Shown piece after piece: positions 6,812-39,760 of a DNA stretch of 64,000 bases (the first letter of the stretch is position 1; every line of letters begins with the position of its first letter). The notes beneath the pieces were generated by a model. The model saw nothing but the letters and a program-made list of their open reading frames with translations, had not been told where the DNA came from and made no database searches. The position numbers and the translations under genes were made by a program. Source of the stretch: an uncultured bacterium (GTDB lineage: Bacteria; Bacteroidota; Bacteroidia; Bacteroidales; Bacteroidaceae). Where the stretch lies: contig CAMBHR010000003.1 in assembly GCA_945867195.1 (NCBI GenBank), forward strand, positions 3,958 to 67,957. Reading direction: 5' to 3'.

Positions 6812-8839
6812 TTACCACACATCGACGCGCTCTTTCTGGGGAACGTAGAGCGGGTCCTTCTTGCTGATGTTGAAAGCCTTGTACCACGCTTCGATATGGG
6901 GCAGGGCACCGTTGACACGCCATTGTGCCGGAGAGTGCGGGTCAGTCTTGACCTGTTGCCGCAACTTTTCCTCGCGGATATTGTTGGCCCATATCAGGCC
7001 GTAGCTGAGGAAAAATCGCTGTTCGGGCGTGAAGCCGTCCTTGGAGGGCAGCGGATGTGACTTCATGGCATTTTGCAGTGACTGGAAGGCAATGTTCAGT
7101 CCGCCGTGGTCCGCAATGTTCTCTCCCAGGGTGAGCTGTCCGTTGGCGTTCAGGCCGGGCAGCACCTCCACGTGGTCAAAGAAGCGGCGCATCACCTCTG
7201 TGCGTTTCTTGAAGTTCTCCTTGTCGGCATCCGTCCACCAGTTCTTCAGGTTGCCGTCCTTGTCAAACTGCGAACCCTGGTCGTCGAAGCCGTGCGTCAT
7301 TTCGTGGCCGATCACCACGCCGATAGCCCCGTAGTTGCAAGCATCGTCAGCCTCGGCGTTGAAGAATGGCGGCTGCAAGATGCCGGCCGGGAAGCAGATT
7401 TCGTTGGTAGTCGGGTTGTAGTAGGCATTGATGGTCTGCGGTTTCATCAGCCATTCCGTGCGGTCGGTGCGTTTGTTCACGCGCTTGTCGATGTAGTAGT
7501 GGCTCATGAACTGCGTGGCGCGCACCATGTTCTCGTAATAGCTCAGCGATTCGTCAATGTCCAGTCCGCCGTAGTCCATCCATTGGTCGGGATAGCCAAT
7601 TTTCACATAGAAGGCATCCAGCTTTTCGTTGGCCTTGCGCTTGGTCTCCTCGCTCATCCAGGTTTGTTGCGCGATGCGTTCGCGTAGAGCCTGTTGCAGG
7701 TTCTTCACCAACTCCTCCATGCGTTTCTTGGACGATTCGGGGAAGTACTTCTCCACATACATCTTGCCGACCGCCATGCCCAGTGCCCCTTCGACCGAGC
7801 TGATGGCACGTTTCCAGCGCGGGCGGTCCTGTTCCGTTCCGGTCATGGTCCGGTTGTAAAAGTTGAAAGCCTCGGTGCGGAAACGGTCGCTCAGCGAGCT
7901 GGCCGCGTCGTCCACCACCTTATAATATAAGTATGCCTTCAGTTCCTCCAGCGAGCATTCCGCCAGCACCTTTTCCACTTCGTGGATAGGCTCCGGCTGG
8001 TTCACCGAAACGTGTTCCACCGCCGGAATGCCACTGAGCAGGAACAACGTGCTCCAGTCAATTCCGGGGAAGTCGGCCAGCAGTTGCCGGTAACTCATTT
8101 TGTGGTAGTTCTTCTCCACATCGCGTTGTTCTGTGGCACTGTACGATGCCCGGGCAATGCGTGTTTCGATGTTCATCACCGCCTCCATGCCCTTTTCGGC
8201 TTCGGCGGAACTTTTGCCTGTCATTTCAAACAAGTGCTTCACATACTGGCGGTAAGCTTCGCGGATGCGTCGGGTAGGCTCATCGTCGGCCAGGTAGTAG
8301 TCGCGTTCGCCCATCGAAATGCCGCCTTGGCTGATCTGCATCAAGTTCCACTCGGAGTCTTTCAGGTCGGCATCGCACCACAGGCCGAAAAAGCAACCGA
8401 TGCCGCGTGAGAAGAGGCGCGCCGTTGCATAGGAAATTTCCGCTTTGCTGCCGATGGCTTCGATTTCGTCCAGGGCAGGCTGGATGGGGGCGAAATCCTC
8501 CCGGTTGCGCCGCACGCTGTCCATGGCCAGCCGGTAGAGCGAGCCGATTTTCTGTTCGAGTGAGCCTTGCGGATACTGTTTGGAGGCGATGCCTTCAATC
8601 AGTTCGCGCAGCTGCTTGCGGTTGTTTTCGGCCAGTGCCTCAAACTGCGAATAGCGTGCATACTCTGCGGTGAGGGGATGTGCATCGCTCCAGCCTCCGG
8701 TGGCGTAACGGTAAAAGTCCGTTCCCGGCTTGGCAGTCAGGTCCATGTTAGCCTTGTCCAAGCCCGAGGCAAGGGGCTGCTGCGCCAGCGTTGTGCCGGC
8801 AAACATGGCCAAGGTCGGTAGGAATGTTTTGATGTTCAT
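6812..8839 (-). CDS. pepO: M13 family metallo-endopeptidase (PepO-like) with signal peptide
   Basis: NAYY, HEMTH, GENIAD, DPHSP motifs. Confidence 0.92.
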   Translation of the reverse strand: MNIKTFLPTLAMFAGTTLAQQPLASGLDKANMDLTAKPGTDFYRYATGGWSDAHPLTAEYARYSQFEALAENNRKQLRELIEGIASKQYPQGSLEQKIGSLYRLAMDSVRRNREDFAPIQPALDEIEAIGSKAEISYATARLFSRGIGCFFGLWCDADLKDSEWNLMQISQGGISMGERDYYLADDEPTRRIREAYRQYVKHLFEMTGKSSAEAEKGMEAVMNIETRIARASYSATEQRDVEKNYHKMSYRQLLADFPGIDWSTLFLLSGIPAVEHVSVNQPEPIHEVEKVLAECSLEELKAYLYYKVVDDAASSLSDRFRTEAFNFYNRTMTGTEQDRPRWKRAISSVEGALGMAVGKMYVEKYFPESSKKRMEELVKNLQQALRERIAQQTWMSEETKRKANEKLDAFYVKIGYPDQWMDYGGLDIDESLSYYENMVRATQFMSHYYIDKRVNKRTDRTEWLMKPQTINAYYNPTTNEICFPAGILQPPFFNAEADDACNYGAIGVVIGHEMTHGFDDQGSQFDKDGNLKNWWTDADKENFKKRTEVMRRFFDHVEVLPGLNANGQLTLGENIADHGGLNIAFQSLQNAMKSHPLPSKDGFTPEQRFFLSYGLIWANNIREEKLRQQVKTDPHSPAQWRVNGALPHIEAWYKAFNISKKDPLYVPQKERVDVW

Positions 8840-11066: not shown

Positions 11067-12551
11067 TTAGTAGCTGCGCGCCACGATGACGCGGCAGGTG
11101 GCGGGCTTTCCGCTCACCATGTCAACGCCGAGGTTCTCTTGGCTGTAACCGTAGGGCACGCAGCGTATGGTGGCTTGCGTCTCGGCTTTGATGCGGGCTT
11201 CGGTTTCCTCGGTGCCGTCCCAGGGGCAGAGGAAGAAGCCTCCGTCCTTGATGCGTTCCTTGAATTCCTCGTAGTTGTCGCAGGTAAATACGTGGTCGTC
11301 CAGGTGCTTCTTGGCCTTGTTGTAGATATTGGCCTGGATTTCCTCCAGCAGCTGCTTGACGTAGTCCTCGATACCCTCGAACGAGCGCGTTTCCTTTTCG
11401 AGCGTGTCGCGGCGCATCAGTTCGATGGTGCCGTTCTCCAGGTCGCGTCCGCCCATTACCAAGCGTACGGGCACACCCTTCAGCTCGTAGTCGGCAAACT
11501 TGAAGCCGGGGCGTTTGTTGTCCGCGTTGTCATATTTCACGCGGATGCCCATGGCCTTGAGCCTTTCGGCCAGTCCGCCCAGCTTCTCGTTGAACGCCGC
11601 GAGTTCGGCATCGCCCTTGTAGATGGGCACAATCACAACCTGTATGGGTGCCAAGTGCGGCGGCAGCACGAGTCCGTTGTCGTCGGAGTGCGTCATGATG
11701 AGCGCGCCCATCAGTCGGGTGCTCACGCCCCACGAGGTGGCCCAGGCATAGTCCAGCTTGTTCTCCTTGTCCACGAACTGCACGTTGAAGGCGCGGCCGA
11801 AGTTCTGTCCCAGGAAGTGACTGGTGCCGCTCTGCAGTGCCTTTCCGTCCTGCATCATGGCTTCGATGGTGTAAGTGTCGAGCGCACCGGCAAAGCGTTC
11901 GGTGGCACTCTTCACACCGCGCACCACGGGGATGGCCAGCACGTCCTTGGCAAAGTCGGCATACACGTCGAGCATCTGCTTGGCGCGTGCTTCGGCCTCT
12001 TCGCGGGTGGCGTGGGCCGTGTGCCCCTCCTGCCAGAGGAATTCCGAAGTGCGGAGGAACAGTCGGGTGCGCATTTCCCAGCGCATCACGTTGCACCACT
12101 GGTTGCAGCAGAGGGGCAGGTCGCGCCAGGAGTGGATCCACTTGCGGTAGGTGTTCCAGATGGTCGTTTCGGAAGTGGGACGTATGATCAGTTCCTCTTC
12201 GAGCTTGGCGGCGGGATCCACCACCACGCCGTCGCCTTCGGGGTTGGCCTTCAGGCGGTAGTGGGTGACCACGGCGCACTCCTTGGCAAATCCCTCCACG
12301 TGTTCGGCCTCCTTGGAGAGGAAACTTTTGGGGATGAGCATGGGGAAGTAAACATTCTGCACGCCGGTTTCCTTGAAACGGGCATCGAGCGACTGCTGGA
12401 TGCGTTCCCAGATGGCATAGCCGTAGGGCTTGATAACCATGCAGCCGCGCACGTCGGCCTGCTCTGCCAAATCGGCCTTTACTACCAACTCGTTATACCA
12501 GCGCGAATAGTCAACACTGCGCTTGGTGAGGTCTTTCAGTTCTTTTGCCAT
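11067..12551 (-). CDS. proS: Proline--tRNA ligase (archaeal/eukaryotic type)
   Basis: [33 protein letters not shown]-terminal ARSY. Confidence 0.96.
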
Positions 12552-12826: not shown

Positions 12827-12909
12827 CTACTCTTGGAATTGTAGAAAACAAGTCCAAGAGTAGTTGTAACAAGTCCTAGACTAGTTGTAACAAGTCCAAG
12901 AGTAGTTTT
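12827..12909. repeat. Three 21-bp tandem units plus one inverted copy
   Basis: aacaagtccaagagtagttgt / aacaagtcctagactagttgt / aacaagtccaagagtagtttt from 12847; inverted ctactcttggaattgt at 12827-12842. Confidence 0.85.
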
Positions 12910-13020
12910 TTTCAACTCCCTGATTTGTGAACGCAGCTCCGCCACTTGTGGGCGGCCGGTCCGGAAGGAGGCAGATTGGGGCATTGCATTCCCCGTTTTT
13001 GCCGGCCAGTCATTGCATCA

Positions 13021-13348
13021 TTATATATACGTAATTTCCCCTTTGATAAATATTGTTCAAACCTTCAGGAACTGTTCATTTCCCTTTTGAATATCAGCTG
13101 TTTTCATACTGAATGATTGGATTTTCAATCATTCATAGTCAGCCGGCTGCGGGAGGGAGGACAAGTGTATAGTTCAGACGGACTATCGACATTGGCCGAA
13201 CAACGGGAGGACGAAGTTCCGGCAGGAATGAGGAGGATGAATGTTTCTTATCAAAAGCTTCATGGCTAATTGCATTGATTTTCAGCAGGAAACAGGTGGT
13301 GCTGAATGATTGAAGAATAAATGGCAGGTAAAAAACACGTATATATAA
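13021..13348. repeat. Palindromic intergenic element A (two inverted ~90-bp modules)
   Basis: Perfect 12-bp termini ttatatatacgt (13021-13032) / acgtatatataa (13337-13348); both arms align with modules at 30643, 39341 and 39580. Confidence 0.7.
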
Positions 13349-13422
13349 GGTGTCATATTTGCACACTTTGCTTCGCCAAGACAGGCTGCGGCTCGGCAAT
13401 GAAAAGAAAAATGGTTTTTTCT

Positions 13423-13453
13423 TTTGCATTGCTCTCGCCTTGCACTATCTTTG
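13423..13453 (+). promoter_or_regulatory. sigmaA promoter for ompA, overlapped by an inverted repeat
   Basis: TTTG (13423-13426), 19 nt, TATCTTTG (13446-13453). Confidence 0.7.
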
Positions 13454-13501
13454 CACCTCAAATTAGACAAAAAAACCAATCATTTTATTCTTTACGTGTT
13501 T

Positions 13502-14218
13502 ATGAAAAAGATGAAGTTTTCAGTTTGTGCAGTAAGCTTGGCCATGTTGCTGAGCAGTTGCGGTATGTCTAACACGGCCAAAGGTGGCCTCATCGGTGGT
13601 GCAGGTGGTGGTGCACTGGGTGCCTTGGTAGGCCAGCTCGTTGGTGGTAACGGCAAGAGCACGGCCATCGGTGCAGCCGTTGGTACTGTTGTAGGTGCCG
13701 GTGCCGGTGTGCTTATCGGCAACAAAATGGACAAGGCCAAAAAGGCTGCCGAATTGGCTAACGCCGAAGCTCAAGTGCTGACCGACCAGAATGGTACGCA
13801 GTACGTAAAGGCAACTTTCGACAGCGGTCTTCTGTTCAATACTGGTTCTGCCACTTTGAGCGCAGCTGCTCAGGCTTCCATCAAGAAGTTCATCAGCAAC
13901 CTCGTGGCTGAGGACAATACTTACAACATGGCTATCTGTGGCTTCACCGACAATGCCGGTTGGAAGGGGTGCACCGCCGAGCAGAGCAAGGCAAAGAACC
14001 TTGACCTCTCACAGAAGCGTGCCGAATCGGTGAAGAACCAGATCGTAGGTTCCGGCTATCCCGCAAGCCGTTTGGTTAGCGTGAAGGGTTATGGCGAAGA
14101 AAACCCCGTGGCCGACAACTCCACTGCCGCTGGCAAGGAGCAGAACCGCCGCGTTGAGGTTTATATCCTGCCCAGCGATGACATGATCAAGGCTGCCAAC
14201 GCTCAGGCTGGCAAATAA
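13502..14218 (+). CDS. OmpA family lipoprotein with glycine zipper
   Basis: Lipobox LSSC, GAAVG glycine zipper, GFTDN, LSQKRAESV, NRRVEV; start at ATG 13502. Confidence 0.92.
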   Translation: MKKMKFSVCAVSLAMLLSSCGMSNTAKGGLIGGAGGGALGALVGQLVGGNGKSTAIGAAVGTVVGAGAGVLIGNKMDKAKKAAELANAEAQVLTDQNGTQYVKATFDSGLLFNTGSATLSAAAQASIKKFISNLVAEDNTYNMAICGFTDNAGWKGCTAEQSKAKNLDLSQKRAESVKNQIVGSGYPASRLVSVKGYGEENPVADNSTAAGKEQNRRVEVYILPSDDMIKAANAQAGK

Positions 14219-15501: not shown

Positions 15502-15509
15502 CAAAGATA
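15502..15509 (-). promoter_or_regulatory. -7 box for the DAGK gene
   Basis: TATCTTTG on minus strand inside a 20-bp segment identical to the ompA promoter. Confidence 0.6.
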
Positions 15510-15668
15510 GTGCAAGGCGAGCGCATGAAAAAGGAAAAACCTGTGGTTTTGCTTTTTTTCATGCCCTGGCCGTACCGTGAAATCATGCTCAAACAATGAA
15601 ATCGCACAATTTGCGCCCCAACGTGCATTTTTTCTCTTGGATAATTAACCTTTTTATAAGGAATTGCG

Positions 15669-30642: not shown

Positions 30643-30735
30643 TATATATATACGTGTTTTTTTCTTTTAAAAATAAGGTTCAAATCTTCATTGCACCCTT
30701 GTTATGTCTGATTGCCATCTGTTTAGGTATGAATG
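30643..30735 (+). repeat. Solo copy of the ~90-bp intergenic module
   Basis: tatatatatacgtgttttttt...ttcaaatcttca...ttgttatgtctgatt...tgaatg aligns with arms at 13348(-) and 39341(+). Confidence 0.6.
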
Positions 30736-30966
30736 TTTGGTGTTTTGTGGCTTTCATGCTGACGTTTTGCCTAAAAATATGTTGAGCTGGACATGTGTGG
30801 CTGTGCCGGTATAGTTTTGCAGTATTGTGGGGAGTTGCAGTTCGGCTTCAGCCCCCATTGTTTTGGTCATCAAGCAATGGTGGCGCAGCACACGTTGTAA
30901 AAGGATATGTCCAAATTGTCCCAAATTGTCCCAAGTGGTTAGCCGATGTAAAAAAAAGAGCTATAA

Positions 30967-37323: not shown

Positions 37324-38994
37324 ATGAAAAAAATATTTTCACTCCTCACCCTTTTCCTCTGCTTCAACGCGGTGTGGGCACAAAAAACGATGTACACGGT
37401 GTTCAACACCAAGACCGGTACGCTGACGTTCAAGTATGATGAAAACAAGCCGAAGAGTACAGCAAGCCAGCTGGTGTATGATGTTCCTACGTCTTTTTAT
37501 TCCGGACCCAAGTGGTATTCCCACAGGTCAAACATTAAGAAAGTTGTAATTGACACATCGTTCGCTGAAGCACGACCAATTACATGCTTTGAGTGGTTCT
37601 ATAATTGTAGTGCATTGACAGAGATCCAAGGTATGGAGAACCTCAATACTTCTGAGGTAACGGATATGATCGAAATGTTCTATGGTTGCTCCAGCCTCAC
37701 TTCTCTTGACCTCTCAAACTTCAATACCGCCAAGTTGCAATATATGTACTCTATGTTCTATGGTTGCTCAGGCCTCACCTCTCTCAATCTGTCAAGTTTC
37801 AATACAAGTAATGTGATATATATGCACGCTATGTTCTCTGATTGCTCAGGCCTCACCTCTCTTGACCTGTCAAACTTCAACACCGCCAAGGTGACGAATA
37901 TGAGTTATATGTTCAATTCTTGTTCAGACCTCGTTACCATATATGCTTCTGACTTGTTCACAACAGAGAGCGTCACTAATTCATCTGGTATGTTTTCCGA
38001 CTGTACCTCTCTTGTAGGAGCCATTTCGTATGACCCCTACAAAGCAGATGCCACCTATGCCAACTACACTACCGGCTATTTCACGTTGAAGGGCAATGTA
38101 ACCACGGAGCATGACTTCACGGGTGAAACCTTATTCAACAACGACAAAAAGATTTACTATAAGGTTTGTCAGGAAGAAGGGTGCCGACAAATAAAATATT
38201 TTGCAGATGCGGCAGGAACTGTCGAAGCTATTCCCAATGAGGATGAAACGGCTTTCAGCGTGGCAACTTACGAATTGCTGGATGCCACAACGTACGACAA
38301 CCAAGCGGTGTTCACCGTGGCTGACTTCACCTACAGCCGCTCGTTTGGCGGGGCAGAATGGACTACGTGGTACGTACCTTTCGACTTGACGCTGACCTCC
38401 GAGCTTTGTGACAAATATGCCTTCTCACGCATCAACAACGTGCATCAGTATGACTTGGACAACAACGGCAGGGCAGAAAAGACCGTGGTGGAGAGCTTCC
38501 GCCAGCAGCCCGGCGTGACGTTGAAGGCCAACTATCCTTACTTGGTGAAGCCGCTCAGCAGTGACTACTGTGACATGGTGCTGCAATTGTCAGATATCAC
38601 TCCCGCACCGGCAGTGACGAACAGCATCGATTGCCAGAGCGTGGACTTCACCTACACCTTCACGGGTACTTACAATGAAATGGGCGAGAGCGGCGCAACG
38701 CTGTACGACCCGTACACGCTGTGGACCAACGGCACATGGCAGCACTTCTACAGCCTGGAATCTATGCGCCACTACCTGACCATCGCACCGCGTCATTCGG
38801 CATCGCCTGCAGCTTCCATCAGCAGCATCGTGCTCTCCGTCATCGGCGAGGAGAACGTGACGGGCATCGTGAACGTCTATGGCGAGGAGCGCAAGGCGAC
38901 GGAGACCTACGACCTGAGCGGCCGCCGTCTGCCGGCAGGAAGTCAGCAAAAGGGACTGGTCATCCGGAACGGAAAAGTGGTTTACAACAAATAA
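37324..38994 (+). CDS. BspA/DUF285-like leucine-rich-repeat surface protein with signal peptide and Prevotella-type T9SS C-terminal domain
   Basis: 26-aa repeats MFxxCSxLTSLDLSNFNTxxV; C-terminus TGI...YDLSGRRL...KGLVIRNGKVV. Confidence 0.85.
   Translation: MKKIFSLLTLFLCFNAVWAQKTMYTVFNTKTGTLTFKYDENKPKSTASQLVYDVPTSFYSGPKWYSHRSNIKKVVIDTSFAEARPITCFEWFYNCSALTEIQGMENLNTSEVTDMIEMFYGCSSLTSLDLSNFNTAKLQYMYSMFYGCSGLTSLNLSSFNTSNVIYMHAMFSDCSGLTSLDLSNFNTAKVTNMSYMFNSCSDLVTIYASDLFTTESVTNSSGMFSDCTSLVGAISYDPYKADATYANYTTGYFTLKGNVTTEHDFTGETLFNNDKKIYYKVCQEEGCRQIKYFADAAGTVEAIPNEDETAFSVATYELLDATTYDNQAVFTVADFTYSRSFGGAEWTTWYVPFDLTLTSELCDKYAFSRINNVHQYDLDNNGRAEKTVVESFRQQPGVTLKANYPYLVKPLSSDYCDMVLQLSDITPAPAVTNSIDCQSVDFTYTFTGTYNEMGESGATLYDPYTLWTNGTWQHFYSLESMRHYLTIAPRHSASPAASISSIVLSVIGEENVTGIVNVYGEERKATETYDLSGRRLPAGSQQKGLVIRNGKVVYNK
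37600..37940 (+). repeat. Intragenic 78-bp coding tandem repeats
   Basis: Units begin at 37678, 37756, 37834 and 37912 (period 78 bp = 26 aa). Confidence 0.85.
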
Positions 38995-39340: not shown

Positions 39341-39580
39341 TCTATACGCTTTTTATTCCTCAAAAAAGTATTCACTCTTTCACATGAAGTTTGTTTCTGT
39401 CTGATTCTCAATGGTTTTGGTGTGAAGGCTTACTCGTTCCGCCCTTTACAAGCGTTCACCGTCCGTGTGAATGTTTTGAAATTCAATCCTTCACACTAAA
39501 ACCGTTGAAAATCAGAGGGAAACAAGCTCTGTGTGAAGGTGTGAATGTTTTTTCGGGGGAAAAATTACGTATATATATAC
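39341..39580. repeat. Palindromic intergenic element B (two inverted ~90-bp modules)
   Basis: Arm 1 39341-39428(+), arm 2 39488-39580(-); inner 28-bp ctgattctcaatggttttggtgtgaagg / ccttcacactaaaaccgttgaaaatcag with 3 differences. Confidence 0.75.
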
Positions 39581-39676
39581 GCGCGCGAAAGGAGTATCTG
39601 CCCAACAGACAGCGGTTTTCGCAGCGTGAACGGTCCGCTTCGGCTGCCCAGCCGGACAAGGCGTGGAGTAACACTT

Positions 39677-39760
39677 CACAAGTCCGGGACTTGTCCGCAC
39701 AACTCGGGGAGTAGGAAAAACAAGTCCAGGACTTGTGAAAACAAATCCCGGACTTGGTTA
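39677..39760. repeat. Four 21-bp tandem units with palindromic ACAAGTCC-N-GGACTTGT core
   Basis: Units at 39677, 39698, 39719 and 39740. Confidence 0.85.

Follow-up and report, generated by a model that had tools for sequence, protein, structure and literature searches.

Repeat units in the proS/ompA gap and at two further loci

The window analyzed here is a 64,000-nucleotide stretch of contig CAMBHR010000003.1 from the genome of an uncultured pig-gut Bacteroidaceae (G000; 2.62 Mb, 55% G+C, 110 contigs). It includes a divergent gap between proS (11067–12551, minus strand) and a gene for an OmpA-family lipoprotein (ompA, 13502–14218). Within this gap, TTATATATACGT is found at 13021–13032 and its exact reverse complement at 13337–13348, giving perfect 12-bp ends around 328 bp. 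A first-pass annotation made from the sequence alone had described this 328-bp unit with its perfect 12-bp termini, and both could be read exactly in the sequence; its naming of the site as a proS/ompA divergent gap agrees with Pfam matches on the same genes in strain contigs. The annotation had also proposed a module of ~90 bp, present in five copies at three loci (13021+, 13348−, 30643+, 39341+, and 39580−). All five arms could be aligned, across ~115 nt rather than ~90, and they belong to a family of ~88 loci. The motif order common to the five arms is TATACG, a T-tract followed by an A-tract, TTCAnnCnTTCA, TGAnnnTCA, and TGAA.

The window holds two composites, at 12828–13348 (array on the left) and 39341–39760 (array on the right), and a solo arm at 30643–30762. 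In the proS/ompA gap, the arm pair had been delimited correctly, whereas the unit extends about 190 bp further and its array at 12828–12906 had been missed; an nhmmer search with a single copy as query aligned the window from 13348 down to 12847 as one unit. The features are as follows.

12828–12906, unstranded: unit A array of ACAAGTCC-type half-sites and palindromes, three 21-bp units and one inverted copy, within the ~500-bp consensus unit
12907–13020, unstranded: unit A spacer linking array to arm, with weak conservation across the family (full-unit consensus, 41 copies)
13021–13140, plus strand: unit A left arm (terminal inverted repeat), outer end TTATATATACGT, nhmmer E 3e-23
13141–13232, unstranded: unit A centre between the arms, variable and G+C-rich; strain variants cluster here
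13233–13348, minus strand: unit A right arm, outer end at 13348, nhmmer E 6.5e-22
30643–30762, plus strand: unit B solo arm, located in the divergent gap that precedes a fructose-bisphosphate aldolase gene, nhmmer E 1.2e-21
39341–39454, plus strand: unit C left arm, outer end CTCTATACG, nhmmer E 2.2e-24
39463–39580, minus strand: unit C right arm, outer end TATATATATACG followed by CGCGCG, nhmmer E 6.3e-29
39581–39676, unstranded: unit C alternating (CG)n tract and spacer, the spacer homologous among composite copies
39677–39760, unstranded: unit C array of ACAAGTCCnGGACTTGT-type palindromes, separated from the arm by 96 bp

Unit B is accompanied by one ACAAGTCC half-site remnant at about 30543, and unit C is flanked by convergent genes. 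Scans of the window for tRNAs and, at gathering score, for Rfam families gave no match.

Other repeats were seen in the window. The ompA promoter block (TAGTGCAAGGCGAGAGCAATGCAAAAGAAAAA..., 13380–13460) is duplicated, with 80–130 bp extra, in three of eight strain contigs (L028, L031, and L032), and the block recurs in inverted orientation as a 38-nt near-copy (15502–15539) ahead of a DAGK-like gene. A large surface-protein ORF (37324–38994) contains three tandem 78-bp repeats at 37643–37932 that are 73–75% alike over 134 nt.

The repeat family in the genome

With an nhmmer profile built from the five window arms, which themselves scored E values of 1e-21 to 6e-29, we counted ~160 arms at ~88 loci in G000, as the first-pass annotation had suggested doing. 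The similarity is also significant against shuffled DNA, a point on which the annotation had staked its reading: the pattern TATACG-N20–34-TTCANNCNTTCA gave 116 matches in G000 and none in either the shuffled or the reversed control. BLAST with one copy was too insensitive, recovering 17 of the ~160 copies in the genome itself and nothing in 40 relatives, so the motif pattern was used instead for comparison among genomes.

Of the arms, 24 are solo, mostly at contig ends, and the others form 68 convergent pairs. Pairs are 253–442 bp long (mode 339–340), with a centre of 8–209 bp between the two arms. After merging, each of the 88 loci proved intergenic, and together the MITE-like repeats take up ~5% of the intergenic regions. 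Pairs and composites are shorter than 1 kb and have no coding content beyond short spurious ORFs that overlap the units. Flanking genes are oriented ++ in 24 cases, −− in 12, −+ in 11, and +− in 10, the same as the genome background, and among the neighboring gene families tested for enrichment none stood out except rep, which is described below.

Any two arms are ~62% alike in all-versus-all comparison, and the closest full copies in the genome reach only 82–88%, with no near-identical pair. Conservation is concentrated in blocks. The arm consensus holds TATACG, an A-run, TTCAnnCnTTCA, TGATTTTCA, GTgTGAAgG, and TTCAC at >90% conservation with poorly conserved stretches between them; the conserved motifs thus comprise the TATACG end, the T/A tract, four TTCA(C) pentamers, and TGATTTTCA.

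From 41 full copies we derived a composite consensus of about 500–650 bp with the order arm, variable centre, inverted arm, often (CG)n, a weak spacer of ~70 nt, and an array of ~85 nt made of ACAAGTCCnGGACTTGT / ACAACTCCnnGAGTAG units with a 21-bp period. An nhmmer search with one long copy gave alignments of about 530 bp with dozens of further copies. We conclude that window positions 13021–13348 are the inverted arm pair of one ~500-bp non-coding composite copy. Copy A has perfect 12-bp termini at its arms, and the composite with its array has only one definable terminus in G000. Of 84 arrays in the genome, 58 sit 29–207 bp outside the outer end of an arm, never within a pair, and 26 stand alone. 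Since these 26 arrays and ~30 arm pairs are solitary, the two modules may be separate entities. One solo array (C42:23034–23113) keeps the TATACACGCGCG end and the spacer and lacks arms; we considered it as an empty site and rejected it, as it is a paralogue rather than an allele and so holds no boundary information.

A different repeat of ~200 bp occurs in at least eight copies with 96–99% identity (C38:6792–6995 and 8303–8504, also on C67, C75, C25, C87, C9, and C31). The two C38 copies are inverted and flank a 1.3-kb stretch that holds one arm/array unit. This ~200-bp repeat looks like a young, separate mobile element.

Distribution and insertion

We applied the motif pattern to 301 genomes that span 35 genera of the GTDB family to which G000 belongs. 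More matches than expected by chance were found only in G000 and one congener, and the family was absent from the other 34 genera. Across the genus, 12 of 148 species were carriers, defined by six or more pattern matches per genome: G356 (159 matches), G000 (116), G435 (52), G432 (32), G411 (27), G431 (21), G304 (16), G383 (16), G437 (15), G394 (11), G380 (9), and G358 (6). These carriers are pig and ruminant gut MAGs labelled Bacteroidales bacterium, Alloprevotella sp., or Prevotellamassilia, and the subfamilies among the 12 are species-specific.

proS and ompA are divergent neighbors throughout the genus. The gap between them measures 950 bp in G000 versus 99–428 bp in 22 congeners, so that the unit adds about 600 bp, although its exact boundaries are not alignable. 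Judged by this comparison, the copy at proS/ompA is best read as an insertion relative to the congeners. The closest species, G356, also has a unit in this gap, with its array on the side away from proS, and the units of the two species do not appear to reflect simple inheritance of one insertion.

Within the species, all eight metagenome contigs that cover the locus carry the unit at proS/ompA. They differ in the number of array units (2 or 3), in the promoter-block duplication, and in scattered substitutions. The variation in 21–22-bp units at 12845–12906 (2 versus 3 in conspecific strains) has the form of minisatellite-like slippage. At the aldolase locus, the gap is 713–795 bp in three strain contigs, close to its length in the window. 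No empty allele was seen at these two loci (eight contigs for proS/ompA and three for aldolase). Among 64 pairs, no direct repeat of 3–9 bp was found at any offset that could represent a target-site duplication, and a TA duplication would be inseparable from the (TA)n termini.

A gene-carrying cassette with the same arms

In G000, just one long stretch is bounded by arms. It lies outside the window, at C63:12243–14137, and consists of an arm, an array, a promoter, a gene for 434 aa (C63:12449–13753), and an inverted arm. Its promoter is of the canonical Bacteroidetes form, TTTG-N20-TACCTTTG. An orthologous copy with arms on both sides of the gene is present in G356 (locus L087), and G435 (locus L089) carries a 2.9-kb cassette, also with arms on both sides, sharing identical blocks of 32 and 38 nt. 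The general cassette is thus 1.9–2.9 kb long, with a ~115-bp arm, a palindrome array of 21–22-bp period, a Bacteroidetes-type promoter, one gene, and an inverted arm, and its flanks beyond the arms are unrelated between species. The left arm of unit A was alignable with cassette arms from other species. The arms of the family are the terminal inverted repeats of the cassette, and the array of the composite corresponds to the cassette's internal repeat array.

The cassette gene product has a VapE-like domain and DUF3874 in Pfam. A profile of 21 homologues matched SaPI1 Rep (PDB 7PDS) with an E value of 3e-11, and an AlphaFold model (pLDDT 81.5, pTM 0.70) matched the same structure over its full length (E 1e-16, TM 0.63–0.65), followed by the primase-helicases of NrS-1 and ASFV. 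The C-terminal end of the model consists of a helix-turn-helix and a beta-hairpin and is winged-helix-like. The gene is accordingly predicted to encode an SF3 self-loading helicase with a C-terminal winged helix. SaPI Reps act as self-loading initiator-helicases and use a C-terminal winged helix to bind iterons adjoining rep (PMC9371898).

Arms and close Rep homologues occur together in other genomes. At 9 of 18 public-genome loci encoding a Rep at least 53% identical, arms were found in the same orientation, either as a plus arm 0.25–1.3 kb upstream or as a minus arm 13–580 bp downstream; several of the arm-less loci in this set are cut by contig ends. No arms were found at the loci of 23 more distant homologues. 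A close Rep is present in 9 of the 12 arm-carrying species versus 8 of 136 others (Fisher p = 6e-8) and is absent from the carriers G411, G432, and G358. In arm-less species, three close homologues (G021:C44:363–1511, G011:C248:1047–2195, and locus L094) have in-frame stop codons and are therefore probable pseudogenes.

Arrays adjoin rep in G000 (C63 and C93), G356, G435, and G304. Distances of 100–250 bp upstream of rep promoters were measured for arrays, and the G000 paralogue C93 and a fragment on C87 have an arm pair and an array directly upstream. In G304, the gene-carrying copies have an array of four CCACAATTGTGG units with a 22-bp period, and gene-less elements of 0.6–0.9 kb have arms outside and an array of TTACAAAsTTTGTAA inside that differs from the G000 array. 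Two array types follow two Rep groups, although there are only two groups and the gene-less G304 elements carry another array type. Between arm/array and rep, G304 locus L078 (3185–3544) has a tandem duplication of ~200 bp as well as further short tandem repeats, which indicates that cassette interiors are repeat-rich.

Search for a mobilizing enzyme

The cassette has no recognizable transposase or recombinase, and no integrase or primase. We scanned for two transposase families. Y1_Tnp (PF01797) is absent from G000 and G435, and the Y1 genes of G304, G356, G411, and G432 have no arm within about 2 kb; IS630-type DDE_3 is absent from six carrier genomes. The cognate transposase or RAYT gene that the first-pass annotation had thought worth seeking was, for these families, either missing or unlinked to arms. 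The annotation's remark that the window contains no transposase is consistent with what we saw, short of a Pfam scan of every ORF.

As further transposase candidates we considered multi-copy proteins, which comprised only BspA-like, Rpn-like PD-(D/E)XK, and AAA/PDDEXK_9-like proteins (labelled by sequence, not by Pfam) and the Rep paralogues, and we rejected them. The Rpn-family PD-(D/E)XK paralogues, which by sequence appear similar to 'putative transposase' proteins, have QQG-repeat tails (C57:8418–9431, C85:1–696, C20:25534–26517, and C36:14143–15030). One Rpn-like paralogue begins 47 bp from a solo arm.

Origin and nature of the repeats

We interpret the feature in the window as probably a gene-less, old, non-autonomous MITE-like relic of an arm-bounded Rep cassette. 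The MITE-like reading, which the first-pass annotation had already offered and which is now the best supported, follows from the high copy number, the strictly intergenic and non-coding location, the inverted arms, and the patchy distribution within one genus, together with the insertion relative to 22 congeners and the longer gene-carrying relative with the same arms. Under this reading, a cut- or copy-and-insert process recognizing the conserved arm motifs would have spread the copies, and the arrays would be putative binding sites (iterons or an operator) of the cassette Rep. The copies in the window are taken to be old and fixed because copies are about 62% alike and all strains carry them, and they may now be inactive. 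Several observations count against this reading: there is no target-site duplication longer than 2 bp, no strain-level presence/absence difference at the two window loci compared, no near-identical copies, and no recognizable transposase in the cassette. The three carriers without a close Rep, and the arrays and arm pairs that occur alone, also weigh against it. A partner with the same arms exists, and its only gene encodes a VapE/Rep-like helicase, so that it is not the transposase-encoding partner of a MITE. The array also changes position, lying outside the arm pair in G000 and inside it in the cassettes and the G304 elements.

Alternatively, selection for a host function could explain why motif blocks stay strongly conserved in copies that have otherwise diverged. 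Arm pairs and arrays would then form a protein-binding module retained by the host, with mobility only as its historical origin; a nucleoid-associated protein or a regulator might bind there, or the module could act as a Rep sink or as a secondary origin for this helicase. Such a module is consistent with short motifs kept at >90% and at fixed spacing versus 30–50% for the remaining arm, with fixation in all eight strain contigs, and with a 21-bp palindrome period equal to two helical turns. The location of arrays upstream of rep promoters also fits, as does the winged-helix-like end of the Rep model, since SaPI Reps use a winged helix at the C-terminus for iteron binding (PMC9371898). However, absence from 136 of 148 congeners argues against a general host requirement, the units prefer neither promoter-side nor terminator-side gaps and have no enriched neighbor family except rep, and descent from functional master copies would produce equal motif conservation. 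Retention for a host or Rep-related binding function is the main rival of the relic reading, but we regard it as unlikely.

A bolder proposal, which we consider rather improbable, is that the Rep cassette belongs to a novel class of mobile element whose spread needs no transposase and relies on an initiator helicase and origin-like repeats, and that its ~85 gene-less descendants are still working Rep-binding, origin-like sites. If this were true, the chromosome would contain dispersed Rep-binding sites able to fire, to titrate Rep, or to block forks.

It is very improbable that the units act as structured RNA or DNA hairpins, such as a REP/ERIC-like terminator, an RNA stabilizer, or a small RNA, in which the arms form a long stem when transcribed. 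The arms are inverted, each has a TTCACA...TGTGAA complement, and the position of unit C between convergent genes would suit a terminator. However, units are equally frequent in divergent gaps, and the window yielded no Rfam match. RNAalifold on 142 arms gave no consensus structure, and the sole intra-arm helices (TTCACA/TGTGAA) never vary and show no compensatory change. Similarity between partner arms is 66%, versus 62% for any two arms, with the partner at a median rank of about 40 of 141. Least credible is a REP/REPIN-type element moved by a RAYT (Y1, IS200-like) transposase, the REP-like alternative of the first-pass annotation: the inverted doublets of a repeated intergenic unit do resemble REPINs and BIMEs and four other carrier genomes have Y1_Tnp genes, but G000 and G435 lack such genes, those of the four carriers are unlinked to arms, and the 115-nt arms do not maintain a hairpin.

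Comparison with known elements

Bacterial MITEs, such as the Correia elements of Neisseria, are small, non-coding elements with inverted termini and lineage-restricted intergenic copies. The preferred reading as MITE-like relics rests on the same traits: the units are 250–650 bp long and non-coding, tens to more than 100 intergenic copies are present, and a longer relative has the same ends. Unlike bacterial MITEs, the window family has unusually long arms (about 115 bp) with several internal conserved motifs and no demonstrable target duplication, and in place of a DDE transposase the longer relative has a gene for a Rep-type helicase. REP/BIME and REPIN-RAYT elements are intergenic inverted doublets with conserved motifs in otherwise diverged copies, as are the units of the window family, whose units are however three times longer, have no linked Y1 transposase, and do not maintain a hairpin.

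BrickBuilt of Porphyromonas gingivalis is a MITE with an internal minisatellite, present in 19 always intergenic copies; its TIRs are 12 nt long and IS5-like (GAGACCTTTGCA), and its internal 23-nt repeats are not palindromes (PMC4596501). It is the closest described analogue in Bacteroidales, as an intergenic, non-autonomous element with inverted ends and a tandem array (~22–23-nt units in BrickBuilt) of variable copy number. It differs in its ends, repeats, and parent: here the arms are 115 nt long and begin with TATACG, the array units are palindromic, the array lies outside the pair in G000, and the parent is not IS5.

The cassette also resembles the SaPI/PICI replication module in its Rep, which matches by profile and by full-length fold, in having a short-repeat array adjoining the gene, and perhaps in having array sequences that differ between Rep variants (ACAAGTCC-type versus CCACAATTGTGG). 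A SaPI is a 15-kb island with an integrase; its origin directly follows rep and has an AT-rich centre with penta- or hexanucleotide iterons on either side (PMC9371898). In contrast, the cassette array lies upstream of rep with 12–17-bp palindromes as units, and integrase and primase are missing. Long inverted arms enclose the cassette, moreover, and the chromosome carries about 85 dispersed copies of its repeats. To our knowledge, the combination of a SaPI-Rep-like helicase, an iteron-like array, and long inverted ends has not been described for bacterial transposable elements.

The make-up of the apparent parent points to either a mobilization enzyme acting in trans in gut Bacteroidaceae or spreading linked to replication. 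The MITE-like repeats also break the G000 assembly, as seen from the many copies at contig ends. The family could serve as a lineage marker within the genus, and the Rep protein with its palindrome array provides a concrete, testable pair in uncultured gut bacteria.
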